Source: a virus (lineage: Duplodnaviria > Caudoviricetes). From it: a stretch of 64,000 nucleotides of DNA. This document shows positions 3,980 through 64,000 of the stretch, piece by piece (positions within the stretch are counted from its first letter, which is position 1; each line of letters starts with the position of its first letter). The position numbers and the translations under genes are program-made. Location: the IMG/VR virus record IMGVR_UViG_3300022917_000008, positions 91,658-155,657 of that record. One strand, given 5' to 3'. Below the pieces are notes generated by a model. That model was not told where the DNA came from, did no database searches, and was given only the letters and a program-made list of their open reading frames with translations.

Positions 3980-4003
3980 TTAGATTAAATCCCCTTATAA
4001 GAT

Positions 4004-5638
4004 ATGAGTACACCAGTAATTAATAATGGTATATTCTACAGACAGACACAGTTCGACATGAGGTCCCACATGGCTAAGAACTATCTGCCATTCATGAATG
4101 TAGATAAGGTCACTGACCTTGGTCCTGTAGAGTATTGGGCAATGACTAGAAAGTCAGAGATGCCATTATATAAGATGTCTAGCTTTGGAGGTAAGAACAT
4201 TGTTGAGATTGATGGCAATGTAGCTAGATTCCAAGTCCCAGTGTCAATGGATGATACTGTTGAAATAGTAGCAGATATTACTACTGTTGACAAGCCTGGA
4301 CTTGATGGAATGAAGTTTGAAATCCTTGTGTCTACAGACAGATTTGGATATGGAGACATTCTGAAGTTCTCTCAGTTCTCCAACTTCCAGATGGTAGTAA
4401 CACCTGATCCAATCAGGCAGAAAGGTGAAGCCTTCATCTACACAGTTAAGATTCCTGACAATGGGTATGTTAAGTACCTAGACAAGAAGTATCTTGTTCC
4501 TGGAGTTAGAATTGGTAAGTATGGCTCTGTAATGTCCCCTGAGTTTGGACAGTACTATAGCTCATGGAAGTACAGTGGAGTAGGTGAAAGGGAGTACATC
4601 ATCAAGATTGGTGAAGCTGTAGCCCAGACCTCTTACTGGATTTCAAACAAGGCTAATGAACATGGCATCTCAGTAGACAATTACAGGAAAGTAATTGAAT
4701 ACGTACAGATTGATGGTACTGGTGATCCCACTGTACCTGAACTGACTAAGTACATGGAAAGTGTTGGCATGAGCCCACTTGACCTTAAGGCTAGGGTAGA
4801 CTCTGGTGAAGCCAGGATGAAGTTTGCCTTTGCTATGGATGATATCTCAATGAGAATCCTAGCTAGGGACTATGAGAATCAGCTTATGTGGGGTACTGGT
4901 GGTAGAATACTACTGGATGGACAGGATGAAGTTGATCTGCCTACAGGATTGTGGCAACAACTGAGTGCTGGTTACATTCACGTGTACAACTATGCCAACT
5001 TCTCTAAGTACATGTTTATCAATGCCTACCACAACTACTTCCTTGGTAAGAGAGACTATGTCACTCCTGGAAGTGAGCCTACTGTTGAAATTGAAACAGG
5101 ATGGGGTGGAATGGTACTGGTAAATGAGATGATTGCTAAGGAAACAAACAGCAACTCATTTGTACTGGATGGCCAGAAACTAGGGGTTGTTACAGGTAAT
5201 GCCTTCAATCTTGGATTTGGTCTATGGTACAATGAACTGACTCTGCCTGGTCTTGTAAGGCTGAAGTTCAGATACAACCCTGCTTTTGATGTTATCAACA
5301 AGAATGATGTGGACAATCCTAAGATTGCTACAGGTTACAACCTGTCTTCTTACTCCTTCATCATGTATGATGTTGATGACTTCTCTAACAACGTACAGTT
5401 GTTAAGGAACAACAAGGCTAAGGTTAAGATGATCATACAGAATGGTAGAGATACCCACCCTCTTGGTGAAATGGGTAATGGAGGAACTTCTAAGTTCTTT
5501 GCTCAGAGCAGAAAGTCAGGGTTTGGTGTAGCATTCGAAAGACCTTATGATGCTATTAGAGTTATTGACCCAACTAGAGTACTGAAGATTGTTATGAGGA
5601 ACCCCTTCACAGGATTGCCTTTTGGAGGCCTGGTGTAA
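4004..5638 (+). CDS. Major capsid protein
   Basis: 544 aa with DLGPVEYWAM, QLMWGTGG, GLWQQL, YNPAFD and DPTRVLKIVMRNP segments typical of crAss-like capsid proteins; followed by a strong terminator. Confidence 0.88.
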   Translation: MSTPVINNGIFYRQTQFDMRSHMAKNYLPFMNVDKVTDLGPVEYWAMTRKSEMPLYKMSSFGGKNIVEIDGNVARFQVPVSMDDTVEIVADITTVDKPGLDGMKFEILVSTDRFGYGDILKFSQFSNFQMVVTPDPIRQKGEAFIYTVKIPDNGYVKYLDKKYLVPGVRIGKYGSVMSPEFGQYYSSWKYSGVGEREYIIKIGEAVAQTSYWISNKANEHGISVDNYRKVIEYVQIDGTGDPTVPELTKYMESVGMSPLDLKARVDSGEARMKFAFAMDDISMRILARDYENQLMWGTGGRILLDGQDEVDLPTGLWQQLSAGYIHVYNYANFSKYMFINAYHNYFLGKRDYVTPGSEPTVEIETGWGGMVLVNEMIAKETNSNSFVLDGQKLGVVTGNAFNLGFGLWYNELTLPGLVRLKFRYNPAFDVINKNDVDNPKIATGYNLSSYSFIMYDVDDFSNNVQLLRNNKAKVKMIIQNGRDTHPLGEMGNGGTSKFFAQSRKSGFGVAFERPYDAIRVIDPTRVLKIVMRNPFTGLPFGGLV

Positions 5639-5652
5639 TAGTCTTATATTTG
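5621..5652 (+). promoter_or_regulatory. Bacteroidota sigmaA-type promoter match (TTTG-N20-TATATTTG)
   Basis: TTTG 5621-5624, 20-nt spacer, TATATTTG 5645-5652 matches the -33/-7 consensus TTTG-N19-21-TAnnTTTG. Confidence 0.45.
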
Positions 5653-5663
5653 ATACACATACA

Positions 5664-5692
5664 GGGGAGATGTGCAGAGTCTCCCCCTTTTT
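5664..5692 (+). terminator. Rho-independent terminator after the capsid gene
   Basis: GGGGAGAT-gtgcaga-GTCTCCCC stem-loop followed by CTTTTT. Confidence 0.8.
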
Positions 5693-5707
5693 CAAAAAAC
5701 CCACATT

Positions 5708-6634
5708 ATGAGTGATAGATCAATAAGCATTCAATACCTTCCATTCCAGGAGGAGAATGATCCAACTAAGCAGTTACAGGCAGGACTATTCCTGTTCCCT
5801 GGATTTGAGAGAAGATTAGAGCCTGCTACAAGGCCATCATCAGGAGGAAAAGTAAGGTTCATCACTGGGCTAGACCCCAATGATTATCCTGAATCAGAGA
5901 GAGAAGAGGTTGTACAAGTGAAGAAAGAGTTAGAGGACTACTTTGGTGCAGACCACATGGACCCCACTAACATTCAGTTTTGGACAGACAAATCTCTCGT
6001 CATAAACAAGAAGACTACATTCTTGAATATGAATAAGCCTGAAGACAAGCTTACATTCTACATGATCAAGGGGGGAGCCTTCAAAGAGATTGCTCCTTCA
6101 TATGAAAAAGCTACAGACAGTGCAGTACCTCTTAGATGGTACTTGATTGATGCTAAAGAGTATGCAGAGGTAGGTGTAGCTGATGACAGAAAGATTAACA
6201 AGGCAATTGCTGCACTTGAAGCTATTGATGAAGACAAGAGGTTAGAAGACATCTTCATTATCCACAAGGTACTAGTATCCTCAGATAGAGGAATCACACT
6301 AAGGACTCCAAGGGGGATGATGTACAAAGACCTATCAGACTTCATACATGGTAAGATAGTCAAGACTAATAAGAAGTTGACACCAAAGCAATTCCTTGAT
6401 GCAGTTGAATTATTGAAGAAGGACAAGAAGGCACTCTATATTTCAGCCTACTTGAAAGAAGGTAACTACTTCAACTTCCTTACTACAGCTGATGACAATC
6501 AGATAAAGAACATACAAACAGGAACCAAGTATGGTGGTTCCTTAGATAGGGCAGCCAGGTTCCTTGCAAGTCCAGCTAATCAAAGTGAGCTGGAAAACTT
6601 GAAGGAGCAGGTTGAGAAAAAATGGAACCAGTAA
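5708..6634 (+). CDS. Conserved crAss-like structural-module protein ('gene 75' position)
   Basis: Start placed at ATG 5708 (MSDRSISIQ) because the track's GTG 5672 lies inside the terminator. Contains RFITGLD, FW and IAPSYE motifs and ends VEKKWNQ. Confidence 0.7.
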   Translation: MSDRSISIQYLPFQEENDPTKQLQAGLFLFPGFERRLEPATRPSSGGKVRFITGLDPNDYPESEREEVVQVKKELEDYFGADHMDPTNIQFWTDKSLVINKKTTFLNMNKPEDKLTFYMIKGGAFKEIAPSYEKATDSAVPLRWYLIDAKEYAEVGVADDRKINKAIAALEAIDEDKRLEDIFIIHKVLVSSDRGITLRTPRGMMYKDLSDFIHGKIVKTNKKLTPKQFLDAVELLKKDKKALYISAYLKEGNYFNFLTTADDNQIKNIQTGTKYGGSLDRAARFLASPANQSELENLKEQVEKKWNQ

Positions 6635-6635
6635 A

Positions 6636-7331
6636 ATGACACCACAACTTGTCCTTATAAAGACCAGACTAAGGCTTAACAAACTGCATAGTAGTGACTA
6701 TGACAACATACCAGATTGGCAGGTCATGGAAGCAGTTAACAAAGCACAGCTAGAATGGTTTAGAAGACAAGTACATGGGTCAAATGTAAGGCAGGAAGGT
6801 GATGAAGAGAGTAGAGTGAGAGTGGATGACCTTCAGAAGTTCCTTGTAGAAAAGAGGGTAAATGGGGCAGACAAGAAGGGATACTTCGAGACTGACACAT
6901 TACCTACTAACTACCTCTGGTTTAAGAAAGTTCTTCCCTATGCTTCCAAAGACACTTGTCAGGGAATCCTCCTTGATAGTACACTGATAGAAGAGGCAAA
7001 TGTGCCTGTCTATCTGTTTGACTGGAGTCTCAGTCCTTCATTTGAGTGGAGACAAACATTCCACACCTTACTTGGCAACAAACTAAGGGTTTATACAAAT
7101 GATGACTTCCAGGTGGACTATGTGCAGTTGACCTATTACAGAGCCCCCAAAAAGGTGGATGTAGCTGGGTATACACATGAAGATGCTACAGCCTCCAAGG
7201 ATTCAGACCTTGAATTTAAGGATGATATAGCAGAGTTGATACTGGATGATGCAGTCTCCATACTGGCAGCAGACACTGAGTATTTAACTCAGATGCAAGC
7301 AGCAAAGCAAAGGGCTGAGGAAAACACCTAA
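6636..7331 (+). CDS. Head-tail ring/adaptor protein ('gene 74'-like)
   Basis: ATG 6636 follows the upstream TAA. RLNKLHSSDYDN, NKAQLEW, PSFEWRQTF, LTYYRAP and ELILDDAVSILAAD are typical of crAss ring proteins. Confidence 0.75.
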   Translation: MTPQLVLIKTRLRLNKLHSSDYDNIPDWQVMEAVNKAQLEWFRRQVHGSNVRQEGDEESRVRVDDLQKFLVEKRVNGADKKGYFETDTLPTNYLWFKKVLPYASKDTCQGILLDSTLIEEANVPVYLFDWSLSPSFEWRQTFHTLLGNKLRVYTNDDFQVDYVQLTYYRAPKKVDVAGYTHEDATASKDSDLEFKDDIAELILDDAVSILAADTEYLTQMQAAKQRAEENT

Positions 7332-7368
7332 GATTCGATTTTACATAACAACAAAACTTTAACAAGTT

Positions 7369-9339
7369 ATGAGTTTCTCACACGAGTATAACTTGCCCTA
7401 TTTTGTAGGGACAGGCGCTATACTAACCTCTGGAACAACAGACCAGCTTAAGAAAGGACAGCTTACAGTCTATAGGTCAAGCACTGGCCAGATTGTAAAT
7501 GGACCAGTTCCTGCTGCTGCCCACCTGCAAATTGCACAAGGTAGCTGGCATACTGTAGACCAGTTAGGAAGGTTCACTGGGGGTCTGACTCAATCAGATA
7601 AGACCATTGAATTTAATGTCAAAGGAATACATTCATTCCAAAGATCATACCCAAGAGCTGCTCAATCTGAGCAATGGGCTATTGGTTGGGATGGTATTAA
7701 TGATTGTAACAAGCTGGCATTCTTTGCTTCAACTAGTTACAGATTCAAGGTAAAGGTATGGGGTGAAGATGTCTATGGCACTTACACAAGGCCTATAGAG
7801 AGGGAGATCATGATCACAACAGGATGTCCTACTACCTCAGCTGATTGCCAAACAGGTAATTGCTTTGACCCTGTGGACACAAAGATTCAGGCATATGCCC
7901 TAAAGAAGGCAATTGAAGAAGACCCTGAGTTGAAGTGGTTTGTGAAGGCTGATGTAATCTCTTCTGATTATGCAGCTACTTCTCCAACCCACACACTGTA
8001 TAACCTGACTGTTCCTGACCTTGGAGATGTGCAAGCCCTGGCTGCAGTACAAACTGCCTATCCAACCCTGCAAATCTCTCTGCTAAGCAGAACAGGTATC
8101 AACTCCACTTACCAAGCCTGTATTCTAACTACAGCTGGTGCACCAGCTAACTACACTCCTGCTGGGTCTATTGCCCTAGCTGTTTGTGGAACATGTCCTG
8201 CTGGTTATACTTCAGTGCCTGCTTATGACACTTATGTAATAACTAAGGCAGTATCTGCAACTGATGCAATTGATACAACTGCTCACCAAGCAACTTATGC
8301 TGCTGCAGTAGTAACTGCATATTCTGCCATAAGTGGTAGTGGTAAGTTCCTTAGCCAAAATGGAGCTGTGGCTCAAGTACAGATCAATGTAACTGCTGGT
8401 ACAGCTGTAACTCCAACAAACAACACTTCTGATATTGTAACTAAGGTTGGTTCTACAGTAGCTCAGTGTACTCCTCCTGCTAACTCAGCAATTGCTTGGG
8501 TATCAGCTGGAACAAGGTACAAGACTACTCAGACCCTCTACTTCACTTTACAGAAGACTTGTGGTGGAACAAACAGACTGTCTGATGTTCAAGCATTCTA
8601 TGCTGGCAACCCAACAATTGTATCTAACTCAATTGCTGTATATGCAAGTGGAACTTGTTCTGACAAGTACACGCTGCAACAATGGAGCAATGATTGTGCA
8701 CTTGATGGTTGCTTAACTAAGCCAGTGCCTACTTTCACTCCTCTTCCTTGGTTTGAAGGTCAAAAGCCTGATGTTGATCCTTGTGCTGTAACTGGCCCTG
8801 TGGATACAACTATCAAGGTAGGTGTGATCTTAACAGCTGCTTATGTAGGAAATACCCAGTTTGGTAACCCAAGCTTCTTCCCAACAGATTACTACTCTGT
8901 AAGGCCTCTGAAGCTCGAAGTAACTCAACTGATGGGTATTGGTACTACCAACTACGATGGTGAAGGTAAGCCTTGTAATAACTTCGTAGCAACAAGAAGA
9001 ATCACTAACTCCTCAATGCCAACCCAAAGTGGTGAATTCATCATCAGGGAGTACATTAGAGCTAACAGGTACAGAGTACATGGAGAGTTCTACCATGATA
9101 CAAGGTTGAGAGAGGTGATGGACAACACAGCATTCAATGCTGTAGATAGAACAAAGAACTATATCACTTACCATCTAAAGGTAACACAAGATAGGTCTCT
9201 GTTCAACCATCAGGCTGATTTCTCTCCTGAAATCTATGAGTTTGTGTTTGCTTTCCCTGTAGGTACAGATACCTCAGCATTTGAGACTTACATAGAGAGC
9301 TTCACAGCGCAGAATGGAGTGTTCCTGACGAACAGATAA
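7369..9339 (+). CDS. Large Cys/Thr-rich structural protein (auxiliary capsid / 'gene 73'-like)
   Basis: 656 aa, syntenic after the ring gene, with a T/A/C-rich central insert, followed by a terminator as expected for a high-copy structural gene. Confidence 0.6.
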   Translation: MSFSHEYNLPYFVGTGAILTSGTTDQLKKGQLTVYRSSTGQIVNGPVPAAAHLQIAQGSWHTVDQLGRFTGGLTQSDKTIEFNVKGIHSFQRSYPRAAQSEQWAIGWDGINDCNKLAFFASTSYRFKVKVWGEDVYGTYTRPIEREIMITTGCPTTSADCQTGNCFDPVDTKIQAYALKKAIEEDPELKWFVKADVISSDYAATSPTHTLYNLTVPDLGDVQALAAVQTAYPTLQISLLSRTGINSTYQACILTTAGAPANYTPAGSIALAVCGTCPAGYTSVPAYDTYVITKAVSATDAIDTTAHQATYAAAVVTAYSAISGSGKFLSQNGAVAQVQINVTAGTAVTPTNNTSDIVTKVGSTVAQCTPPANSAIAWVSAGTRYKTTQTLYFTLQKTCGGTNRLSDVQAFYAGNPTIVSNSIAVYASGTCSDKYTLQQWSNDCALDGCLTKPVPTFTPLPWFEGQKPDVDPCAVTGPVDTTIKVGVILTAAYVGNTQFGNPSFFPTDYYSVRPLKLEVTQLMGIGTTNYDGEGKPCNNFVATRRITNSSMPTQSGEFIIREYIRANRYRVHGEFYHDTRLREVMDNTAFNAVDRTKNYITYHLKVTQDRSLFNHQADFSPEIYEFVFAFPVGTDTSAFETYIESFTAQNGVFLTNR

Positions 9340-52677: not shown

Positions 52678-55398
52678 ATGGCAATAACAGTTAATGATAG
52701 CATACAAAATAACAGTCCCAAGAGTATAGATAACAAGTATCTAAACCTGGGGATAGTGACCTATGTTGATAAAGCAGAGGTCAACTCTGTCATTCCATTT
52801 GCCTATAGAAGTAGAGGACTGACTGTGAACATTGCTGGATCAGAGTTCTGGTACAAGGATGGACTGGAAGATGCTGCCCTTGTATCAAAGGGTATTACAA
52901 GTGTATTAGGTCCACTTTCCCTGGACTTTACTACTGGTATTATGTCCATAACACCTGCCTCTAATAGTGTCAATGGATATCTTACAAGTGGAGATTGGAC
53001 TTCCTTCAATAACAAACTGGGAAGTGTTCTTACAGCCATGTCAGTGACTAACACTGGGGTATCTGGCAATCCAATTACACTGGTCAATGACCAACCTACA
53101 CCTGGTGCCACAATGTACTATGGTACCAACAGTGGAGGTGTGAAGGGATTCTATCCTGTTCCTGTAGCAAGTGGGGGTGGCCCTGCAGCTGTATGGGGAG
53201 GCATTACAGGCACTCTTAGTGATCAGACAGATGTATACAATCTGATACAAGGAAAGGAACCTGCCTTATCTGCTGGCACAACAGCACAATATTACAGGGG
53301 GGATAAGACCTGGCAGACACTCAACACAAGTGCTGTACCTGAAGGCTCCAATCCTTACTTTACTACAGCTAGGGCAAGGACTTCTCTAAGTGCAGGAGCA
53401 GGCATAAATTACAATAGTACAACTGGTGTAATTGCATCAACAATCACCCAAGCAGATGGTACAGAAACAAAGCTAACTGCAGGGTCTAACATAACAATCA
53501 CTGGAACTGGTTCATCTACAACACCTTATACAATCAGTACTACAGGTGGAGGTACAGTTACTAGTGTAGGTCTATCAAGCACAGACCTGACTGTATCTGG
53601 AACACCAGTTACAGGGGCAGGCACTATTACAGCTAACCTTAGTACAACTGGGGTAACAGCTGGATCATATACATTCCCCAGTATAACTGTGGATGGCAAG
53701 GGAAGGCTTACTGCTGCAGCCAATGGAACACTTCCAGTTGCTACAACAGGAGTAGCTGGTATTGTGAGAATTGGCACAAACATTAACGTGTCAGCAGGTG
53801 TAATTAGTGTTACATTCCCTTCTCTGCCAATAGCTTCCAGTACAATACTAGGAGGTGTGAAGATTGGATCAGGTGTGAGTGTGGCAGGTGATGGAACTAT
53901 TAGTGTTACTGGGTACACTCTCCCTATTGCCTCAAGTACAATACTTGGTGGTGTTAAGGTGGGTAGTGGCCTTGCTATAGATGTGAATGGTGTTCTATCC
54001 TCAACAGCAGGTGGTGGTAGTGTTACAAGTGTAGCATTCTCCTCTACTGACCTTAGTGTGTCTGGTTCACCAATCACAGGAGCAGGAACTATAACTGCAA
54101 ACCTTACTGCTACTGGAGTGTCTGCAGGCACATATAATAATGTGAGTGTGGATGTGAAGGGTAGAGTGACAGCTGCCTCAGTTGTTTCCTATCTAACTGG
54201 TAATCAGACTATTACACTTAGTGGAGATGTGACAGGTAGTGGCACAACAGCTATTACTACTGCACTCTCAGCTACAGGTGTAACAGCTGGAACCTACACT
54301 AGGGCCACAATAACTGTGGATGCAAAGGGTAGGATCACAGCAGCTTCAACAAATGCAGCTGGGGTTACTTCTGTAGGGCTGAGTTCCTCAGATATGGTTG
54401 TTACAGGCTCTCCTATAACCTCCACAGGATCATTTACACTGACTCTAAATACAGTCAATGCAAATGTAGGAACATTCAACAATGTGACTGTAAACGCCAA
54501 GGGATTGGTTACAGCTGCATCCAATGCTTCCTACATAACAGCCAACCAAAATATTACTCTGTCAGGAGATGTAGCTGGATCAGGTACAACTGCAATTACA
54601 GCAACAATCCAACCTGCTGCTGTAACTTACACTAAGATACAGAATGTAACTGCAGCCAGGTTACTTGGTAGATACACTGCATCTGTAGGCTCAGTACAGG
54701 AAGTAACAATAGGAAGTGGATTGTCTCTGGACAGTACAACAGGCGTACTTAGTGCAGCAGGAGGTGGAAGTGGTACTGTAACTAACTTTAGTGCAGGTAC
54801 CCTATCTCCAGTATTCACTACCTCTGTAGCTAATGCATCAACTAATCCTGCTCTTACATTTGCTCTAAGCAATGCAGGTGCTCATCAATTCCTTGGTAAT
54901 AACACAGGGTCTTCAGCTGCTCCTACTTATGTGCAGCCAGCCTTTACAGACCTGAGTGGTAATATCAATGTCAACCAGATGAACAGTGGTACAAATGCTT
55001 CATCCTCAACAGTTTGGAGAGGTGATGGCACTTGGACTATAGTGACTAGTGGCACATATACTCCTACTGTAAATGGTATCAGTAATGTTACTTCTCCATC
55101 AGGTCAGCCATGTGCGTGGACTAGAATAGGCAATACAGTAACAGTATCTGGAGAAGTAGACCTAACTAACAGTGGTACAGGTAGAGTAGCATTTACCATA
55201 ACTCTACCCATCAATATAACCTCAGGTAGCCTGATGGGAGGAGCTGGAGCAGCCATACCCTTTGGTACTCCTACACAAGGCTTTGGTCCTGTGGCAATTG
55301 AAGCCTCATCTACAACCACAGCACTATTCACTCTATTTATGTCTAGCACCCCCTTCACCTTCAGGGTATTATTCACCTTCTCTTATAACATTGCATAA
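52678..55398 (+). CDS. Long tail fibre protein
   Basis: 906 aa, T/G/S-rich; repeats TGV[TS]AG[ST]Y..[IV][TS]VD.KGR[LVI]TAA, LPIASSTILGGVK[IV]GSG and QTITLSGDVTGSGTTAIT; C-terminal GTYTPT...WTRIGNTVTV tip domain. Confidence 0.82.
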   Translation: MAITVNDSIQNNSPKSIDNKYLNLGIVTYVDKAEVNSVIPFAYRSRGLTVNIAGSEFWYKDGLEDAALVSKGITSVLGPLSLDFTTGIMSITPASNSVNGYLTSGDWTSFNNKLGSVLTAMSVTNTGVSGNPITLVNDQPTPGATMYYGTNSGGVKGFYPVPVASGGGPAAVWGGITGTLSDQTDVYNLIQGKEPALSAGTTAQYYRGDKTWQTLNTSAVPEGSNPYFTTARARTSLSAGAGINYNSTTGVIASTITQADGTETKLTAGSNITITGTGSSTTPYTISTTGGGTVTSVGLSSTDLTVSGTPVTGAGTITANLSTTGVTAGSYTFPSITVDGKGRLTAAANGTLPVATTGVAGIVRIGTNINVSAGVISVTFPSLPIASSTILGGVKIGSGVSVAGDGTISVTGYTLPIASSTILGGVKVGSGLAIDVNGVLSSTAGGGSVTSVAFSSTDLSVSGSPITGAGTITANLTATGVSAGTYNNVSVDVKGRVTAASVVSYLTGNQTITLSGDVTGSGTTAITTALSATGVTAGTYTRATITVDAKGRITAASTNAAGVTSVGLSSSDMVVTGSPITSTGSFTLTLNTVNANVGTFNNVTVNAKGLVTAASNASYITANQNITLSGDVAGSGTTAITATIQPAAVTYTKIQNVTAARLLGRYTASVGSVQEVTIGSGLSLDSTTGVLSAAGGGSGTVTNFSAGTLSPVFTTSVANASTNPALTFALSNAGAHQFLGNNTGSSAAPTYVQPAFTDLSGNINVNQMNSGTNASSSTVWRGDGTWTIVTSGTYTPTVNGISNVTSPSGQPCAWTRIGNTVTVSGEVDLTNSGTGRVAFTITLPINITSGSLMGGAGAAIPFGTPTQGFGPVAIEASSTTTALFTLFMSSTPFTFRVLFTFSYNIA
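53761..54010 (+). repeat. Coding repeat LPIASSTILGGVK[IV]GSG in the fibre gene
   Basis: Two near-identical peptide copies plus a degenerate third; diverged at synonymous positions. Confidence 0.6.
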
Positions 55399-56393
55399 TG
55401 GCACTAATAGTTAATGACTCCATACAGAACAATAGTCCCAAGCCTGTGGACAATAAGTACGGGGTATTCTCAGCAGGCTCCTTCAGACCATATAACAATG
55501 TGACTGAGGCTAACAGCCTTATACCAGCTGCTTATAGGTCTATTGGTCTGACCACACTAATAAACACTGGTAGTGGTAATACTGAATACTGGTATCAAGC
55601 TGGTATTGCAGATGGGAATCTTGTGCCTAAAATATCCACTACTTCAGTATCAGTTCCTATTACTCTCACAGGTGGAGTGATAGGCATACAGATAGCTAAC
55701 ACATCACAGGCAGGTTATCTAAGCTCAGCAGACTGGAATACTTTCAATAGCAAGATTAGTGGTGCAACCAGTGTAGGAGCTGGTACTTCCATCATTAATA
55801 CGGTGGGTAGTGGTACAATAAGCGTCAAGTCTATTACTGGAAGTGGTGGTGTTACTGTGACAGACAATACTACCTCAATCAACATTGCAACCACTGTATC
55901 TACTGGTTCCAATGTAGGATCAGGAGCAGGGATATATGCTAGTAACACTGGGGCTCAGTTAAATCTGAGAAGCATCATAGGTACTGGCAACATCTCAGTT
56001 ACACAGAACACTAATGATGTTACCTTAAGTCTTGTTGGTACTACAATACCAGCACCAGTTACTACATCCAATGCTACTCCTAGTGCTTTGACCTCAGTTA
56101 CAATTGAGAATAATAGTGCAGGTATACTTGAGATTACATTGATAGGTATTGTTGTAGGTACTCCCACTACCTACACAATGGCTAAGAGATACGCCAAATA
56201 CTACAAGATAGGTGGAGTTGTAAATGTGATTGAGGTGGGAGATATTATCTCAGAATCTCTGGGTACACTTACAACAGCTACTTGGACAATTGTAGCCAAT
56301 GGTACAACCAACAACATAGATGTGACTATCACTGGGCAAGCTTCCACAAACATTAAGTGGACAGCTACAGTACAGAAGTACTTCACAACATAA
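55398..56393 (+). CDS. Short fibre protein, N-terminal paralogue of 52678
   Basis: MALIVNDSIQNNSPKPVDNKY versus MAITVNDSIQNNSPKSIDNKY; also contains GYLSSADWNTFNSK. Confidence 0.75.
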   Translation: MALIVNDSIQNNSPKPVDNKYGVFSAGSFRPYNNVTEANSLIPAAYRSIGLTTLINTGSGNTEYWYQAGIADGNLVPKISTTSVSVPITLTGGVIGIQIANTSQAGYLSSADWNTFNSKISGATSVGAGTSIINTVGSGTISVKSITGSGGVTVTDNTTSINIATTVSTGSNVGSGAGIYASNTGAQLNLRSIIGTGNISVTQNTNDVTLSLVGTTIPAPVTTSNATPSALTSVTIENNSAGILEITLIGIVVGTPTTYTMAKRYAKYYKIGGVVNVIEVGDIISESLGTLTTATWTIVANGTTNNIDVTITGQASTNIKWTATVQKYFTT

Positions 56394-58525
56394 TGATTAT
56401 GAAGAGATTATTAGGACTTATTGGATTACTGATCATGTCCTTAGTATCACAAGCACAGGTAACTATTGCTTCTGATGTAAGGATAAGGTCTGCAGCAGGT
56501 ACAGCTCCTAATGTGGTGATACCAGTTAATGGAGGTATTCTATATGCAGATGGGAATGGACTAGTCAAGAAGACATCAGCCCTTATGGGGATTGGATGGG
56601 TTCCTGTAGACACTACTTCCCTAAGAACATATACAACTGGGGTAACTGGCATTGTGTATCACATGACTACTCCTGGTAGGGAAGGTGACTACAAGTATGA
56701 TGCTAGTGACCTTTCCTCTACAGATAATGGCTCTACTGTAATAGTAGCAGGTACAGCTAGGTACAAAAGGATTATAGAAGGTAGTGTGGATGTGAGATGG
56801 TTTGGTGCAGTAGGAGATGGTTCTACCAATTGTACAGTACCTATACAAAGGGCCATAGATTGGTGTGCTAGCCAAGGACAGAGCAGTAAGGTTGTATTCA
56901 TCCCACAAGGAAATTACCTTGTAGACTCACTAAGGCTGAGGAATGGAGCAAGTATAATGGGGGACAACAAGAGAACAACCATAACTGCCAGAGCATCAAG
57001 TGCTTCTGGTTTATTTGTTCTAGTGGATGCCCCAACACAAAAGATTAGTATAAGCAACCTGACTATAGTGGGAAACGCAGCTAATGCTGGGCAACACTGT
57101 TTCAACATCACAGCTATCCCCCAGTTAGTCCCAGCTTATACAGGAGGGCTTTGGTATTCAGAGTTCTCATTTATGGACATAACTGGATTTAGGGGGCATA
57201 CATTCCATTTCTATTGTAGTGATGGACTAGGAGATATGGCCAACCAATTCATTGACATATACAAGGTTATAGTGCATAGCACAGCAGATGCAGGATCAAG
57301 AGGGCTATATGTGGAAGGACAGATGGGGCAGTTGAAGGTGCAGAGTTGTGAGTTTGATGGGCTTGCAGCATCCAATGTAGGAACAGTAGGAGTTGAGCTT
57401 AAGAGTATAACTCCCAGTACAAATGACTTTGCATGGGGGATTAGCTTTGACAACACAACAATACAGAATGTTTGGAAGGCTATGTACACCTCATTTGCTC
57501 AGAATGTTGTGTTCCAGAATGGTTGGTTAGAGGATGACAGCTCTGGTGTTCATGGTACAAATGCATCCAGGCTAAGGATTCTGGATAATCACATAGCCAA
57601 TGTGGCTGAGGTAGCAGGTACTGCCATTATTATCAATGATGACAATAGTGTTATTGACCTGGTGGGTAATGGGCTATATGGAGCATTAGGTGGTAGAGTT
57701 TATACCTCAAGTAGCCAATCAAGTGGTAGTGGGGATATAAGAGACAACTACTTCCAGAACTTGGGTGCTATTACAACTGTGTTTGTTGCAGGCAATATAA
57801 ATGTATCTTCTGGTACACTAAACAGTGCTTACTTCAGAGACATAGTTACAACTGCAACTACTAACAAGAGTACCTATGTTGTAAACATCAACAGTAGCTT
57901 AGGGCCTGGTGAATTCCTTACAGTGAGATGTGATGCCAGATTTGTACCTGGTGGATTCGTAGCATTCAAGCCTGGACTTGGTAACATCAGTTACCCAGGT
58001 GAGGTAGATAGTGGATTCATAGTCCTTAGGGACAAGGAGACAGCCATATTCAGAAGAACAGACTTGTTTGGGGATTGGGCACTCATTGCACTAAGTAAGC
58101 CAGAAAGGTACTCAGACACAATTCCCACTGTAGGCTCGTACTATAGTGGAGAGAAGATTTGGAATAATAACCCAGCAAATGGAACCTTATACTGGTATTG
58201 CAAGCTGGGAAGTATTCCTGCAGTATGGGATAGTGTTACAACAGTTCCAAAAGCAAACATAATTGAGACGTCTGCCTCTACACTATCAATCACAGCACCA
58301 GGCAACTACATATTTCTGGGATCAAGTGCTACTTGGACATTACCTCCTCTAGCTAGTAGCTATGGTAAGAGGTACTACCTCAACAATAGTACAGCAGGAA
58401 CAGTCACACTAAATGCAAATGGCTCTGATGATATAATGATTGGATCAAGCCCTTCTACTACATTCCCACTAACAACTGGAACTATAAGGCTTGTAGGAGG
58501 TACTGCCCATTGGTACTTAGAATAA
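56393..58525 (+). CDS. Signal-peptide-bearing beta-helix (pectate lyase 3-like) depolymerase / tailspike-like protein
   Basis: Start at 56393 (TAATG) or 56399; MKRLLGLIGLLIMSLVSQA|Q; VDVRWFGAVGDG...IQRAID...VFIPQGNY beta-helix cap; C-terminal WTLP domain. Confidence 0.8.
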   Translation: MIMKRLLGLIGLLIMSLVSQAQVTIASDVRIRSAAGTAPNVVIPVNGGILYADGNGLVKKTSALMGIGWVPVDTTSLRTYTTGVTGIVYHMTTPGREGDYKYDASDLSSTDNGSTVIVAGTARYKRIIEGSVDVRWFGAVGDGSTNCTVPIQRAIDWCASQGQSSKVVFIPQGNYLVDSLRLRNGASIMGDNKRTTITARASSASGLFVLVDAPTQKISISNLTIVGNAANAGQHCFNITAIPQLVPAYTGGLWYSEFSFMDITGFRGHTFHFYCSDGLGDMANQFIDIYKVIVHSTADAGSRGLYVEGQMGQLKVQSCEFDGLAASNVGTVGVELKSITPSTNDFAWGISFDNTTIQNVWKAMYTSFAQNVVFQNGWLEDDSSGVHGTNASRLRILDNHIANVAEVAGTAIIINDDNSVIDLVGNGLYGALGGRVYTSSSQSSGSGDIRDNYFQNLGAITTVFVAGNINVSSGTLNSAYFRDIVTTATTNKSTYVVNINSSLGPGEFLTVRCDARFVPGGFVAFKPGLGNISYPGEVDSGFIVLRDKETAIFRRTDLFGDWALIALSKPERYSDTIPTVGSYYSGEKIWNNNPANGTLYWYCKLGSIPAVWDSVTTVPKANIIETSASTLSITAPGNYIFLGSSATWTLPPLASSYGKRYYLNNSTAGTVTLNANGSDDIMIGSSPSTTFPLTTGTIRLVGGTAHWYLE

Positions 58526-58535
58526 AATAACAAAC

Positions 58536-59639
58536 ATGAAGAAACTACTAGGGCTTGTCACACTTCTGATAATATATGTGACAGCACAATCCCAAACTAC
58601 AGTGGCTAACTCATTGCAGGTCAATACTGCAAAAGGTACTGCACCTTCACAGGCTATTCCTGTGAATGGTGGTATAGCCTATTTTGATGCAAATGGTATA
58701 CTAAAGAAGACTACAGCCCTAGCTGGTTTGGGAGCAAAGGTTACCAGTGTAACTGCAACTAATGACTCCACTCTATCTATTGTTACAGATGCAGGAACTA
58801 CTCCTGTACTTGTAAGAGGGTTGTTTACACCCACAAGGCAGAAATGGTTTGACTCCCTAAAGGCTGGCCAGATATTTGATACCATTAGGGTACAGCAGGT
58901 TGGTGCAGGGATCAACCCAATCTATTCCAATGCTGCTGGTACAATACTACTAGGCAAGGCACTAAGGGGATCAGGCACAATTGAAATACAGAGGGCTACA
59001 GATAGTTCTCTGGTGTTCAATAGTTTATATGCCTTCCCTCAATCAGTTATAGCTACAGGAACAAATGGTAATAACATTGGGCTTGTGGGTGACAATGCTT
59101 CTCCCCCCAATGGTTCTGTATATAGCATACAGGGGGGTAGCAAGGGGTGGTACCTGGCTAACACATTTGCAGTGGCAACAAGTACTGCTAATGGCTTACT
59201 GGACTTCAGATTGAAGAACAGGATAGATAGTATTGTAACTTTCACTAACTTTACAGTTGGAGGAACTTATGATAGTATTGCTGTTGCTTCTCCTACTCTG
59301 GATAGTGTCATATTGAAAGGACAGAAGTTTAGAGGAGCAGCTGGTTCTTCCCTTAGTGTGACAAATCAGGGGAATGTATTTACCAATGACTATGTATTTG
59401 ACATAGGAATAAGGGTTGCACAAGCATCAGCAACTGCTGATGGAACCTCTACAGTCTACAATATTGCACATGGACTAACTGGGGTAACAACAAGTTCCCC
59501 AGCTATAGTAAGCCCAAGAAATGCCTTGGCTAATAGTCAGCCTTATATTGTGACAGTCACATCAACAAATATTGTAATAACTTATTCATCCCCACCTAGT
59601 GCAGGATCAATGCTCTACTCATACATAATAAGACCATAA
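58536..59639 (+). CDS. Signal-peptide-bearing fibre-like protein
   Basis: MKKLLGLVTLLIIYVTAQS|Q; mature N-terminus paralogous to 56393; C-terminal ADGTSTVYNIAHGL lectin/fibre-like domain. Confidence 0.72.
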   Translation: MKKLLGLVTLLIIYVTAQSQTTVANSLQVNTAKGTAPSQAIPVNGGIAYFDANGILKKTTALAGLGAKVTSVTATNDSTLSIVTDAGTTPVLVRGLFTPTRQKWFDSLKAGQIFDTIRVQQVGAGINPIYSNAAGTILLGKALRGSGTIEIQRATDSSLVFNSLYAFPQSVIATGTNGNNIGLVGDNASPPNGSVYSIQGGSKGWYLANTFAVATSTANGLLDFRLKNRIDSIVTFTNFTVGGTYDSIAVASPTLDSVILKGQKFRGAAGSSLSVTNQGNVFTNDYVFDIGIRVAQASATADGTSTVYNIAHGLTGVTTSSPAIVSPRNALANSQPYIVTVTSTNIVITYSSPPSAGSMLYSYIIRP

Positions 59640-61012
59640 TGAAAAGACTACTTGCAACCATCTCATGTCTACTAGTATACTTCCTTTGCCAATCACAGGT
59701 AGTGAGGATAGGTACCATGGTATACCCTACAGGAGTGGGGCCTAACCTCATTACACTTAGTACATCCTCACTTACAGGGTTCTCTACACCACAAGGTACA
59801 CCTTCAACTGCTCAGACATTTACTGCTAGTGCAGTTTCTCTGACTGCAGGTGTAACTATCACAGCACCAACGGGATATGAAGTATCTACAGACAACTCTA
59901 CATTTACAGGATCACTAACCCTGGGACAATCTGGGGGTACACTTGTAGGGCAACCTGTTACGGTATATGTGAGAATAACCAGTGCAGCATCTGCTGGTAG
60001 TGCTAATGGAACATTGACAGCCTCTTCAACTGGGGCTACAACAAAGTCTATAACATTAACTGGGACAGTCACTTCTACATCCCCTAGCATATCAGTGAGC
60101 ACCAACTCCCTTAGTGCCTTTTCAACTACTGCGGGTAGTGCAAGTGCCTCACAATCATTCACTGTAAGTGGAGCAAACCTAACAGCAAATGGATTGGTTA
60201 CTCCCCCTAGTGGTTTTGAAGTGTCTGGAGACAATACAACCTTCCAATCTACTTTCACCTTAACACAAGGTGGAGGAGTATTTAGTGGGCAGCCTGTTCC
60301 TCTGTATATAAGAGTAGCTGCTTCTACAGCTGCTGGTACATACTCTGGTAACGTATCTATATCATCTACTGGTGCTACTACTAAGAATGTAGCAGTGAAT
60401 GCAACAGTCAATAGTGCTGGTGGTGGTTCAGTTGCTAAGTTCAATTTCACATTTGATAACTCTGGGCAAACAGCAGCTGGATGGACTAAGTTCTATGGTA
60501 GTAACCAAACTAACCTTTCATTCACTGATGCAGGTACAGGTTGGACTCTACAAACAACTGGGGCTAATTGGGCAGGGTTTGCAGGAACAGGATATGGTTC
60601 TAACACTGAAGGAGCAACTACAGGAACCTTTGGATCAACATTCCCTGCAGCAGTAATAGCAGGTGTGTACTACAATGTAAACAGGACTTACAGTGGCTCC
60701 AACTATGGCTTCCACATAGATAACCTACCAACAGGTAACTACACAATCCAGATAGTAGGGTCTATCAAGTCTTCTGTCAACAATCAGGTAACATTCCCTG
60801 AGTATCATGTGAAGTTTGGATCAAATGCAGATCAGGAAGCACACACAATGAACAATCAGGATAATACTGGTAATCCTAATGACAATACACACGTACTAAG
60901 CTTCACTAACAACATAACAGCTGGACAATCACTATCCTTTGGTGTATTTGCTCCTAGCTCTCTTGTACCTGGAGCTGGATGTATCAATGCAGTGATCATT
61001 ACAAAAAACTAA
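59639..61012 (+). CDS. Signal-peptide-bearing Ig-repeat protein with C-terminal carbohydrate-binding-like domain
   Basis: MKRLLATISCLLVYFLCQS|Q; two ~115-aa repeats (Q[TS]FT...LTA...P[TS]G[YF]EVS.DN...GQPV..Y[VI]R...SSTGATTK). Confidence 0.72.
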   Translation: MKRLLATISCLLVYFLCQSQVVRIGTMVYPTGVGPNLITLSTSSLTGFSTPQGTPSTAQTFTASAVSLTAGVTITAPTGYEVSTDNSTFTGSLTLGQSGGTLVGQPVTVYVRITSAASAGSANGTLTASSTGATTKSITLTGTVTSTSPSISVSTNSLSAFSTTAGSASASQSFTVSGANLTANGLVTPPSGFEVSGDNTTFQSTFTLTQGGGVFSGQPVPLYIRVAASTAAGTYSGNVSISSTGATTKNVAVNATVNSAGGGSVAKFNFTFDNSGQTAAGWTKFYGSNQTNLSFTDAGTGWTLQTTGANWAGFAGTGYGSNTEGATTGTFGSTFPAAVIAGVYYNVNRTYSGSNYGFHIDNLPTGNYTIQIVGSIKSSVNNQVTFPEYHVKFGSNADQEAHTMNNQDNTGNPNDNTHVLSFTNNITAGQSLSFGVFAPSSLVPGAGCINAVIITKN

Positions 61013-61013
61013 T

Positions 61014-64000
61014 ATGAAAAGAATACTTCAAACACTGGCTCTACTACTGATCTATGTAGTAGGCCAGTCTCAGAACACAACTCCAACCTATACTCAGCCA
61101 ATAGGCACCACTTTTGGTAACATGACTGTTATCAACATGGCGTATAATGCCCCTGGGTTTGCCTATGGGCAGGCTATGGTTTATTTGCCCCCTGGTTACA
61201 ATGACCCTGCTAATGCTACAAAGAAGTACCCTCTATACTTCTTTAGCCCTGGTAGTGGTGAAACTTCTCAGAACAACATCATTGAAGTACAGACCACTTC
61301 TTTACCCCAGCTGATAGCCCAGGGATTCAATCCCTATTCTATAGACACACTAACTGGGGATACAGTGAGATGGATAGTCATTGTACAGCATGCTGTAGGT
61401 GGAGCAGCAAATGCCTACCCTCAGCTGAAATACACTTTCCCCTATCTACTAGCAGACACTTTATACAGAATAGATCACAATTGTGTATGGGCTGGTGGTC
61501 TCTCTAATGGGTGTAGAGCCTCTGTATCCATTATAGTAGGACAAGTGGTAGGAGACACTGCTCTTGGAAAGATGATCACAGGCATCATGCCAATATCAGG
61601 CGCAGGATATGATGACTACCAGAACACTACTGGATTCAGGAACCTTGACACCTTCATGGTTAGAGGTGGAGGAGTCTTGTATACAATAGGATCACAGGAT
61701 CAGAACTTTAATGCTCTGGGTTATGTGGCATTTGATAACAAGTACACTCAGTTTGCAAGGCCAAACAAGTACAGGAGGTATGTGGCTCTAAACCAGGGAC
61801 ACACAGCTAGTGTATGGACTCCTTGTTTCCAGTTGAATTTCAAGCAATTTGATAGTACTCAATTCAAATGGAATGCCTGGGACCTGATGTGGGCTATGAG
61901 AAAGAATGCTGCTGTAGCTTCCCTTAGTGCCAATGCAGGTACCAACCAGACTATAACAACTCCTGCATCTACCACTACTCTTAATGGTAGTGGTCAGACT
62001 CCTAGTGGTACCACTATTACTGGATATGCCTGGACTAGAATTAGTGGTCCTAACACTCCTACAATTGTATCACCAAGTAGTGCAACTACCAATATAACAG
62101 GGTTAGTACTAGGGACATATGTGTTCCAACTACAGGTAACCAACTCAGCTTCAAACACTGCTACTTCACAAGTTACTGTGACTGTACAAAGTCAACCAGC
62201 TAACCCTCCAATTGTTTCAGCAGGTGGAGCACAGAGCATACAACAACCTACTTCCTCAGCTACATTGAATGGTAGTGTAACTCCACAAGGATCAAACACT
62301 ATCACTAGCATTACATGGACACAAACAAGTGGCCCTGTAACAGCTAACATTGTATCTCCTTCATTTGCAAGCACTAACATAACAGGTCTTACTACCTTGG
62401 GTACCTATGTATTCAAGATAACTGCTGTAGATAGTAGGGGACAATCAGCCAACTCCAATGTGAATGTGGTAGTTAGTCCTAATCCAGGATCAGCTAATGT
62501 AGTACTTAAGCCAGTAATTACTGAGTATGCAGTTGCATTTATCTATAAGGGAGACTCTCTTACAAGGAAATTCACCTACAACCAGACTACAGGCCACGTG
62601 CAGTTTGATCCATTTGTAATGGGTAGCAGGAAGACTATAGATGGTGCTCCTTTGTTCAACACATTTGTGCTACTGGATGATCAACACTACATGTGGAGGA
62701 CAACTACAGGTACTTCCAATGCAGTTAGAATGGACACAGACACACTGGGAAATCCTCTCAATGATGTACAATCTGTGTATGGATACTTCTTCACTGGAGC
62801 TTGTATCAGAACAGATGGTTCTATCTGGTACTTTGGACAAGATGACTACCACTTCTATAGTGCAGGTGGTATCACCATGAACAAGCCTATCAAGCTGAAT
62901 CAGCCTCCTGGTGTACAGTTCAAGGCACTGGCTATGGGTGTAGACTTACTAGGGCTAACAACAACTGGGGATGTTTACTACTGGGCACTGGGTGATCCTA
63001 CCTATCATCAGGTAACACTTCCAGGACCTGCCTTATTCATAGGTTCTTCCCACTACAACTACAAGGTTATAGTGGTGGATGATGGTGCTGGTAGTGGAAT
63101 GGGATACCCCTATGTATTTGGTAGTGAATTTGGATTCTGGGGTGGTAATGCACAGGCTCCATATACAGCTCCTCTCCCAATGAAGACATTGTGGGGCATG
63201 ACCCAGCCAATCAAGTCTCTGGCTGTATCCAATAACACAATTCACTATGTTGACTCACTGGGGAGAATGTATGGAATTGGAGATGGTCCCAATGGAGAAA
63301 TTGGGGATGGAAGGCATCTGGTGAATCATGCAGAGTTGTATCCTAGTCCATTTGCATGGTCCTGGGTCAAAGGGGAGCTATTTACAGGGGCTCCTGCAGT
63401 TCAGGTAGCTCCAGGTATTGTTTGGAAAGAGGTCTTTGCTGGGCCTGCATTTGCTTATTACAACTATGCCAAGGATGTCAATGACTCCCTATACTTCTGG
63501 GGAAGAAACAAATCCTTTGTGGGTGGAGATGGGGTAGCAAACAACCAAGAAGTTACCTATCCCAATGGATTGGATGTGGATACTCCTAGTATGAGGACAC
63601 CCTTAGCTGTTACACCAACACAGACACAATACTATAATTTTAGCCTACCAACTGCAAATGTTGGAGCTAACCAGAACATTAACACAACTTCAACTACTCT
63701 TAGTGTGACTGCTACTCCACCTTTACTGGTGGCTAGTGGTAAGCCTAACTATGGGTACACAATAGCTAGTTACTTATGGACTAAGTTAAGTGGCCCTAGC
63801 TGTACAATAACAAGTCCAAGTACTGCCACAACTACAGTAACAGGAATGGGATCAGGTACTTACTCTTTCAAAGTACTGATGACAGATAACAACAGAAGCA
63901 CTTGGGCTGATACTTTACAGGTGGTAGTAAATACCTCTCTTCCAATAGTGAGTGCAGGTTCTAACCAGGTGGTGACTCTGCCTACTACACTAACACTTAA
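61014..64000 (+). CDS. Signal-peptide-bearing alpha/beta-hydrolase + PKD repeats + RCC1-like propeller protein (3'-truncated; not in ORF track)
   Basis: Translated by hand and open to the window end: MKRILQTLALLLIYVVGQS|Q; YLPPGY...KKYPL; nucleophile G-L-S-N-G (61497-61511); candidate acid and His in GSQD and QGH; PKD units (ANAGTNQTI, VSAGGAQSI, ANVGANQNI, VSAGSNQVV); RCC1-like DGSIWYFG, GDVYYW and GRMYGIGDGPNGEIG. Confidence 0.85.
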   Translation, partial: MKRILQTLALLLIYVVGQSQNTTPTYTQPIGTTFGNMTVINMAYNAPGFAYGQAMVYLPPGYNDPANATKKYPLYFFSPGSGETSQNNIIEVQTTSLPQLIAQGFNPYSIDTLTGDTVRWIVIVQHAVGGAANAYPQLKYTFPYLLADTLYRIDHNCVWAGGLSNGCRASVSIIVGQVVGDTALGKMITGIMPISGAGYDDYQNTTGFRNLDTFMVRGGGVLYTIGSQDQNFNALGYVAFDNKYTQFARPNKYRRYVALNQGHTASVWTPCFQLNFKQFDSTQFKWNAWDLMWAMRKNAAVASLSANAGTNQTITTPASTTTLNGSGQTPSGTTITGYAWTRISGPNTPTIVSPSSATTNITGLVLGTYVFQLQVTNSASNTATSQVTVTVQSQPANPPIVSAGGAQSIQQPTSSATLNGSVTPQGSNTITSITWTQTSGPVTANIVSPSFASTNITGLTTLGTYVFKITAVDSRGQSANSNVNVVVSPNPGSANVVLKPVITEYAVAFIYKGDSLTRKFTYNQTTGHVQFDPFVMGSRKTIDGAPLFNTFVLLDDQHYMWRTTTGTSNAVRMDTDTLGNPLNDVQSVYGYFFTGACIRTDGSIWYFGQDDYHFYSAGGITMNKPIKLNQPPGVQFKALAMGVDLLGLTTTGDVYYWALGDPTYHQVTLPGPALFIGSSHYNYKVIVVDDGAGSGMGYPYVFGSEFGFWGGNAQAPYTAPLPMKTLWGMTQPIKSLAVSNNTIHYVDSLGRMYGIGDGPNGEIGDGRHLVNHAELYPSPFAWSWVKGELFTGAPAVQVAPGIVWKEVFAGPAFAYYNYAKDVNDSLYFWGRNKSFVGGDGVANNQEVTYPNGLDVDTPSMRTPLAVTPTQTQYYNFSLPTANVGANQNINTTSTTLSVTATPPLLVASGKPNYGYTIASYLWTKLSGPSCTITSPSTATTTVTGMGSGTYSFKVLMTDNNRSTWADTLQVVVNTSLPIVSAGSNQVVTLPTTLTL

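Follow-up and report, generated by a model that had tools for sequence, protein, structure and literature searches.

Enrichment of the Bacteroidota O-glycosylation sequon in signal-peptide-bearing proteins of a crAss-like phage suggests substrates of a host glycosylation system

Why do neighbouring late genes of a tailed phage encode proteins that combine host-type signal peptides with the sequence motif of a bacterial glycosylation system? The question is raised by the IMG/VR virus record IMGVR_UViG_3300022917_000008, of which we analysed the last 64 kb (positions 91,658 to 155,657 of the 155,657-bp record; hereafter the window). Four tightly packed open reading frames (ORFs) with predicted signal peptides (SPs), named here by their first nucleotide as 56393, 58536, 59639 and 61014, lie there downstream of the signal-less fibre genes 52678 and 55398 and upstream of the lysis cassette. 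Bacteroidota are dominant in the gut, the soil and the sea, and crAss-like phages are their most abundant viruses. The general O-glycosylation system of these bacteria acts on the sequon D-(S/T)-(A/I/L/V/M/T); about half of their non-cytoplasmic proteins carry it, above the expectation from composition (PMC12871550, Fig. 2A), its occupancy is near complete, and the function of the system is described as still largely unknown (PMC12871550). The original prediction for this DNA held that such sequons are concentrated in the exported phage proteins and that export may serve to get them glycosylated. Here, we report that the sequon is enriched in SP-bearing and membrane-anchored proteins of this phage, and we argue that these proteins are probably adapted substrates of the host system.

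Sequons (D-[ST]-[AILVMT]) were compared with the expectation from each protein's own composition, obtained analytically and from 2000 shuffles. ORF 58536 (58536..59639, + strand; 367 amino acids, aa) has six sequons among its 14 Asp residues (DST, DSL, DTI, DSI, DSI and DSV, at residues 77, 106, 115, 231, 246 and 256, or nucleotides 58764, 58851, 58878, 59226, 59271 and 59301), where 1.4 are expected (p=0.0015). The visible part of ORF 61014 (61014..64000, + strand; 995 aa visible, 1085 aa complete) has ten, with 3.3 expected (p=0.0015), at residues 111, 116, 148, 181, 280, 514, 576, 747, 824 and 966 (nucleotides 61344, 61359, 61455, 61554, 61851, 62553, 62739, 63252, 63483 and 63909). The four sequons of ORF 56393 (56393..58525, + strand; 710 aa), at residues 73, 178, 575 and 613 (nucleotides 56609, 56924, 58115 and 58229), are at chance level (3.0 expected, not significant). 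ORF 59639 (59639..61012, + strand; 457 aa) has none (1.0 expected, not significant) and is without any D[ST] dipeptide, all eight of its Asp residues preceding N, A or Q. As candidate substrates the four ORFs thus hold 20 sequons in three of them, and pooled they lie above the shuffled expectation (20 observed, 8.8 expected; Poisson p=8e-4).

The two signal-less fibres (906 and 331 aa; 52678..56393, + strand) serve as internal negative controls. Both are as Ser/Thr-rich as the SP ORFs yet sequon-poor and not above expectation (2 sequons versus 3.6 expected in 52678, and 1 versus 1.1 in 55398), and the nine signal-less fibre and tail proteins of the window, taken together, fall below it (12 versus 19.5). 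These counts reproduce all five that had been made by hand for the original prediction (6, 10, 4, 2 and 0 in 58536, the visible 61014, 56393, 52678 and 59639). Of the exported proteins, 58536 and 61014 bear out its claim of a concentration; 56393, which is at chance, does not, nor does 59639, which bears an SP without sequons and belongs to a family that avoids the motif. Ten decoy motifs (first residue changed to E, N, Q, G or K; the motif reversed; D[ST] with a third residue outside the permitted set; D[AG]X; and D[NQ]X) were flat in the same proteins. Internal repeats as a source of the counts were ruled out, every sequon standing in a different context.

The enrichment extends across the genome. 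An automatic classifier of SPs and N-terminal anchors, applied to each of the 171 ORFs in the 155.7-kb genome, flagged 18 proteins, which together carry 45 sequons versus 13.1 expected (3.4x, p=5e-12); the remaining 153 carry 97 versus 116 (0.83x). With the four window ORFs set aside, the other 14 flagged proteins still have 25 versus 4.4 expected (p=1e-11). The small exported proteins reach the highest enrichment (5.7x), and all five of the most sequon-enriched proteins of the genome are SP or anchor proteins. The most enriched is a 224-aa protein with an N-terminal membrane anchor, encoded outside the window at genome positions 1754-2428, two genes upstream of the PF00959 endolysin, with 8 sequons where 0.83 are expected; each of its eight D[ST] dipeptides forms a full sequon. 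In the 12 clearest exported proteins, 44 sequons are written in 39 different 9-mers with both Asp codons and eight Ser/Thr codons, which rules out a DNA repeat or DNA-motif artefact. Residue use in these 44 (S 26, T 18; third position L>V>I>T>A=M) equals the published order for real glycosites in Bacteroidota glycoproteomes. As a separate observation, E[ST][AILVMT] is depleted in 155 non-SP proteins of the genome (76 versus 114 expected, p=1e-4).

Could the excess be chance, or an artefact of proteins rich in Ser and Thr? Taken singly, just two of the four ORFs reach significance, and their p=0.0015 each is borderline after correction for 33 proteins. However, the expectations are already built on each protein's own composition, the equally Ser/Thr-rich signal-less fibres fall below theirs, the decoys are flat, the 14 other SP and anchor proteins provide an independent result at p=1e-11, and relatives replicate it at p=1e-17 to 1e-28. 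This explanation is already refuted.

Replication comes from relatives and homologues. In the syntenic relative L004, SP-like proteins have 24 sequons versus 10.6 expected and the rest 7 versus 12.0. For 58536, an exhaustive HMMER search returned 38 relatives, of which those with its SP and N-terminal module carry 142 sequons versus 47.4 expected, and 60 versus 28.4 when residues 201 to the end are taken alone; beyond residue 200, these same proteins are depleted in D[ST] followed by a non-permitted residue (15 versus 36). Other SP-bearing matches have 31 versus 9.5, whereas SP-less relatives are at expectation (20 versus 19.1, 1.05x). Nine close full-length homologues of 61014 carry 94 versus 33.8 (p=2e-17), and its distant PKD-only matches are at ~1.1x. 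The spike 56393 has weaker family support: its homologues P0019 and P0032 show 5/2.5 and 4/2.6 observed/expected, the family reaching ~1.6x at most.

Individual sites are also maintained. Five of the six sites of 58536 are kept in all three full-length homologues (50-66% identity), and sites 77 and 106 in 17/17 and 16/17 of the proteins sharing the N-terminal module, where swaps of S for T and of the third residue stay within the motif. In the 61014 family, five sequon columns are shared by 80% or more of the sequences, with 0-1 for decoys, and the kept sites vary only inside the motif (DT[V/I], DT[A/L/I], DT[L/M/I/V], DST/DTT/DTL/DTV). The 58536 family additionally has 29 single-sequence sequon columns, which represent lineage-specific gains. 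Selection on a modification site would predict such conservation of a degenerate motif and its absence from SP-less relatives. Close relatives of 58536 and 61014 are nearly absent from IMG/VR, 58536 has no DNA or protein match in cultured phages, and a pattern search of 185,579 bacterial genomes found no relative of it.

The conserved region that follows the SP is notable for its distribution. This module (Q-T-T-[VI]-x-N-x-[LI]-Q-[VI]...NGG...ND-S-T...D-S-L...; window 58536-59100 and 56393-56700; P0006-P0022) heads proteins of 168 to 1108 aa with differing C-terminal parts and contains two to three near-invariant sequons. It resembles an exchangeable adaptor or docking domain.

Site conservation could instead mean that the tripeptide is a structural motif of the folds concerned, such as an Asx/ST turn or a helix N-cap before a hydrophobic strand, kept for the sake of folding. 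Several sites are indeed invariant across distant homologues, 12 of the 14 Asp residues of 58536 are invariant in close homologues whether they lie in a sequon or not, and in the low-confidence structure model of 58536 site 77 falls in a beta-hairpin turn and site 106 in a predicted helix. A folding role would nevertheless have to be shared by unrelated SP and anchor proteins, since the enrichment spans a PKD/RCC1 protein, the N-terminal module family, seven small proteins and a lysis-cassette protein. It is absent from SP-less homologues and from exported proteins of other phyla; S and T are interchanged at kept sites while the third residue is confined to the permitted set; and many sites, including the single-sequence columns of the 58536 family, are lineage-specific gains. 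We regard a purely structural origin as improbable.

Which host would act on these sequons? All 11 cleavable SPs of the phage expose Q at the predicted +1 position, a Bacteroidetes-specific rule (PMC5837995). In the four ORFs the predicted export signal consists of an n-region with K/R, a hydrophobic core and a small-x-small/Q cleavage region, and it is conserved in homologues. The SPs occupy approximately 56393-56455 (MIMKRLLGLIGLLIMSLVSQA/Q, the slash marking predicted cleavage), 58536-58592 (...VTAQS/QTT), 59639-59695 (...YFLCQS/QVV) and 61014-61070 (...VVGQS/QNT). No lipobox was found in them, there being no Cys at the predicted +1 position (SQA/Q, AQS/Q, CQS/Q and GQS/Q). Searches of Pfam and NCBIfam likewise found no type IX secretion system (T9SS) C-terminal sorting domain (PF18962/TIGR04183, PF13585) in 56393, 58536, 59639 or the complete 61014/P0108, while many bacterial homologues of 61014 and 59639 carry one (PF18962 in those of 61014). 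The seven best bacterial matches of the endolysin are all from Bacteroidota, namely one Bacteroidales metagenome-assembled genome (MAG) and six Chryseobacterium. Named homologues of 61014 are T9SS proteins of Chitinophagaceae, Cytophagales, Cyclobacteriaceae and Sphingobacteriales, and those of 61014 and 59639 together come mostly from Chitinophagaceae, Cytophagales, Sphingobacteriales and Bacteroidia. The Q-rule, the endolysin matches and the 61014 homologues point to a Bacteroidota host. The sequon enrichment independently backs this host and working SPs, as had been proposed for the SPs, in that only SP-bearing family members are enriched and their sites are conserved within the permitted residues.

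For calibration against bacteria, samples of 200-400 kb from four Bacteroidota genomes went through the same pipeline. Their SP-like proteins reached 0.76x in Chryseobacterium, 1.68x in the Bacteroidales MAG, and 1.41x and 2.20x in two other Bacteroidota; putatively cytoplasmic proteins of these samples lay at 0.97-1.26x, and SP-like proteins of other phyla at 1.05x. The pipeline therefore recovers the published host-level enrichment, since it returns 1.4-2.2x in three Bacteroidota genomes and ~1.05x in other phyla. Enrichment in host proteins is lineage-dependent within Bacteroidota, and the idea that all their exported proteins look alike is ruled out by Chryseobacterium. The phage value of 3.4x is at or above the top of the measured host range (0.76-2.2x). 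Chryseobacterium endolysin neighbourhoods showed no enrichment, and both Flavobacteriales-associated data sets, host and phage, are without it.

These baselines bear on a further possibility, namely that the sequon load is baggage inherited with genes for sequon-rich secreted proteins of Bacteroidota and is under no selection in the phage. ORF 61014 has full-length bacterial homologues at ~50% identity with T9SS sorting domains; four such homologues (P0116, P0117, P0120 and P0122) are themselves enriched (13/4.6, 9/4.2, 11/4.6 and 9/3.3 observed/expected), and host SP proteins reach 2.2x in some lineages. Yet phage-type homologues as distant as 44% identity still keep the sites, and the phage values exceed all four measured host baselines. 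The small exported proteins and the 58536 family, for which the pattern search of bacterial genomes gave no counterparts, are nevertheless the most enriched. We thus think inheritance an unlikely source of the pattern; it would in any case alter only the origin of the sequons, and the proteins would still be glycosylated.

Taken together, we consider it probable, at roughly three chances in four, that the Sec-exported phage proteins are adapted substrates of the general O-glycosylation system of the host. This reading builds on the enrichment, its motif specificity, its restriction to SP-bearing proteins, its conservation and its replication in relatives, all of them observed. The four ORFs would be late genes of a ~156-kb crAss-like phage with a Bacteroidota host, and eight or more other proteins of this phage, small or anchored in the membrane, would behave alike. 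The proteins would be made with host-type Sec SPs whose predicted cleavage exposes Q, be translocated to the periplasm, and there receive a glycan from the host system on Ser/Thr of the sequon. Published work holds that in these bacteria every accessible sequon of an exported protein receives a glycan, that motifs introduced by engineering do so too, and that glycosylation also works across species (PMC12871550); a protein exported in a sequon-using host would hence be glycosylated by default. Selection would have raised and kept the sites strongly in 58536 and 61014, weakly in the spike 56393 and also in the small exported proteins, and it would keep sequons out of the 59639 family. The likeliest benefit, as proposed for host glycoproteins, would be that the proteins are more stable, more soluble and more resistant to proteases once outside the cytoplasm; a second may be that surfaces are masked.

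Host machinery is the likely actor because no oligosaccharyltransferase of the PglL/Wzy_C type was found in the phage genome, and the only glycosyltransferase-like ORFs are two that fall below threshold. These lie far from the locus: one is GT2-like (80675-81652; 21 bits, cut-off 23.3) and the other GT1-like (PF13692; 34403-35446; 21 bits, cut-off 27). In principle, these two could alter a host glycan.

Several points weigh against the proposal that these proteins are host-glycosylated substrates. The first concerns the proteins themselves: two of the four SP ORFs, 56393 and 59639, are without sequon enrichment, and both export and glycan attachment are deduced from sequence. The second concerns the measurements. 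SPs were called by our own heuristic rather than by SignalP, counts within homologue families are phylogenetically non-independent, and the 58536 model has a mean predicted local distance difference test score (pLDDT) of 49.9, too poor to judge site exposure. The third concerns generality. The host can be placed to phylum and not to species, exported proteins of Chryseobacterium lie below expectation, and the Cellulophaga phages phi17:2 (5 sequons versus 4.2 expected) and phi18:3 (NC_021794; 3 versus 9.8 in gp085-gp087) show no excess. A rule for Bacteroidota phages at large is not supported by phi17:2, phi18:3 or crAss001. No cleavable-SP proteins were found in crAss001, whose only rich protein is the anchored gp27 ('lysis regulatory protein' of the lysis cassette; 4 versus 0.35 expected). 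It is alike in position and architecture to the 224-aa anchored protein described above; homology of the two was rejected on a match of only E=0.013 over 20 residues, and we treat them as analogous.

ORF 59639 sits between two strongly enriched neighbours, 58536 and 61014, and the scarcity of sequons is a property of its whole family. Its 12 full-length homologues (37-83% identity; P0043-P0059) have 2 sequons versus 13.9 expected (p=1e-4) and only 2 D[ST] dipeptides followed by another residue versus 17.6. Part of this scarcity is intrinsic to the domain type, since partial matches without an SP are also low (0.45x). Gingipains are wholly without the motif, which their authors read as selection against glycosylation (PMC8729774). 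By analogy, avoidance in the 59639 family may reflect such selection, or it may be a domain property.

This ORF and phi18:3 also bear on the second claim of the original prediction, that export serves to get the proteins glycosylated. In phi18:3, gp085-gp087 (locus 2892-8584) are three consecutive late genes with Q-rule SPs; in sequence, no relation between them and the four ORFs was detected. Because these three proteins and 59639 bear SPs and are sequon-poor, export and sequon load can be uncoupled, and the claim about the purpose of export finds no support. More simply, export would serve a function of the proteins' own, and they would have adapted to, or exploit, the modification. Camouflage, stability and adhesion, the roles suggested in that prediction, are indistinguishable at the sequence level.

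The phi18:3 record annotates gp085-gp087 as virion structural/tail proteins from tandem mass spectrometry (MS/MS) proteomics, so SP-bearing appendage proteins can end up in particles. We tentatively raise the possibility, which we think doubtful rather than likely, that the exported sequon-rich proteins (the spike, 58536 and the PKD enzyme) are virion appendages that are Sec-routed, O-glycosylated in the periplasm and docked at or after lysis through their shared N-terminal module. In favour are the late-operon position, the phi18:3 precedent, the N-terminal module common to the spike and the 58536 family, and a C-terminal domain of 58536 that also occurs in fibre-like proteins of jumbo phages; against it stands the fact that phage particles are built in the cytoplasm. 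Such a route of assembly and modification is undescribed for tailed phages, and if it exists, released virions would carry host-type glycans.

The setting of the locus can be summarized briefly. ORF 56393 continues after its SP with a pectate-lyase-like beta-helix and would be a spike or depolymerase (Pfam PF12708 at 1e-13; PHROGs matches to tailspike and exopolysaccharide depolymerase families). ORF 61014 comprises an N-terminal domain, K319L-like PKD repeats (three matches to Pfam PF22352) and an RCC1-like part. The genome ends share a 12-nt overlap (CACTAACACTTA; window 63986-64000 / genome 1-285), and the record is a circularly permuted complete genome. ORF 61014 crosses the circular junction into bases 3-284, which gives the full length of 1085 aa and adds a fourth PKD-like domain. 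An independently assembled complete 1085-aa copy, P0108, is listed at 100% identity; its first 317 residues are exact, and the C-terminal tail and all ten sequon positions are common to both. A 154-kb relative encodes both P0004 and P0110. In L004 the gene order is fibres, four SP genes, a small SP gene, a holin-like gene and the endolysin. The large genes of the present genome are all on a single strand and encode, for example, proteins of 4065 and 2319 aa; its closest cultured relatives, 145-kb Cellulophaga phages and a cyanophage, share ~24% identity in one structural protein only.

If phage proteins routinely carry the species-specific O-glycan of the host, phage enzymes and appendages would bear host-like sugars, with a bearing on stability in gut or soil, immune recognition and self/non-self discrimination. 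Sequon load would then be a cheap sequence marker of a working phage SP and of a sequon-using Bacteroidota host lineage, and it would help to predict the hosts of uncultured phages. The contrast between neighbours, with 58536 and 61014 enriched and 59639 sequon-free, would provide a natural experiment on the role of the glycan.

Phage glycosylation of another kind has a precedent. In work by Freeman et al. (2023), mycobacteriophages are reported to glycosylate capsid and tail-tube proteins by means of their own cytoplasmic glycosyltransferases, which was proposed to influence recognition and stability. Unlike in mycobacteriophages, here a general periplasmic system of the host would act on exported phage proteins at a defined sequon, and phage-encoded virion glycosylation of the mycobacteriophage type does not fit a genome with only the two sub-threshold glycosyltransferase-like ORFs. 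In the literature we found no paper linking phage proteins to the Bacteroidota O-glycosylation system, and a review of that system makes no mention of phages (PMC12871550). The nearest statement is a remark on Porphyromonas gingivalis phages, whose Q-rule proteins also have host-type SPs that expose glutamine and are read by their authors as an adaptation to the host secretion pathway (Matrishin et al. 2023, PMC10367356). That system differs in comprising five small genes of temperate phages that have no assigned function, with glycosylation unmentioned, whereas here large late genes of spike, fibre and enzyme type are joined by the sequon. The phi18:3 proteins gp085-gp087 are alike in their Q-rule SPs and consecutive late genes, and unlike in being sequon-poor. 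The closest likeness is to the known substrates of the general system in B. fragilis, T. forsythia, P. gingivalis and F. johnsoniae (PMC12871550, PMC8729774). The phage proteins resemble these in Sec export or anchoring, in the sequon itself, in a motif frequency above the composition expectation (the same statistic as in PMC12871550, Fig. 2A) and in that some exported proteins avoid the motif, namely gingipains in P. gingivalis and the 59639 family in the phage. They differ in being encoded by a lytic-type phage, in that their glycan attachment is a prediction, and in an enrichment of 3.4x overall and 5.7x in small proteins, compared with 0.76-2.2x in the host.

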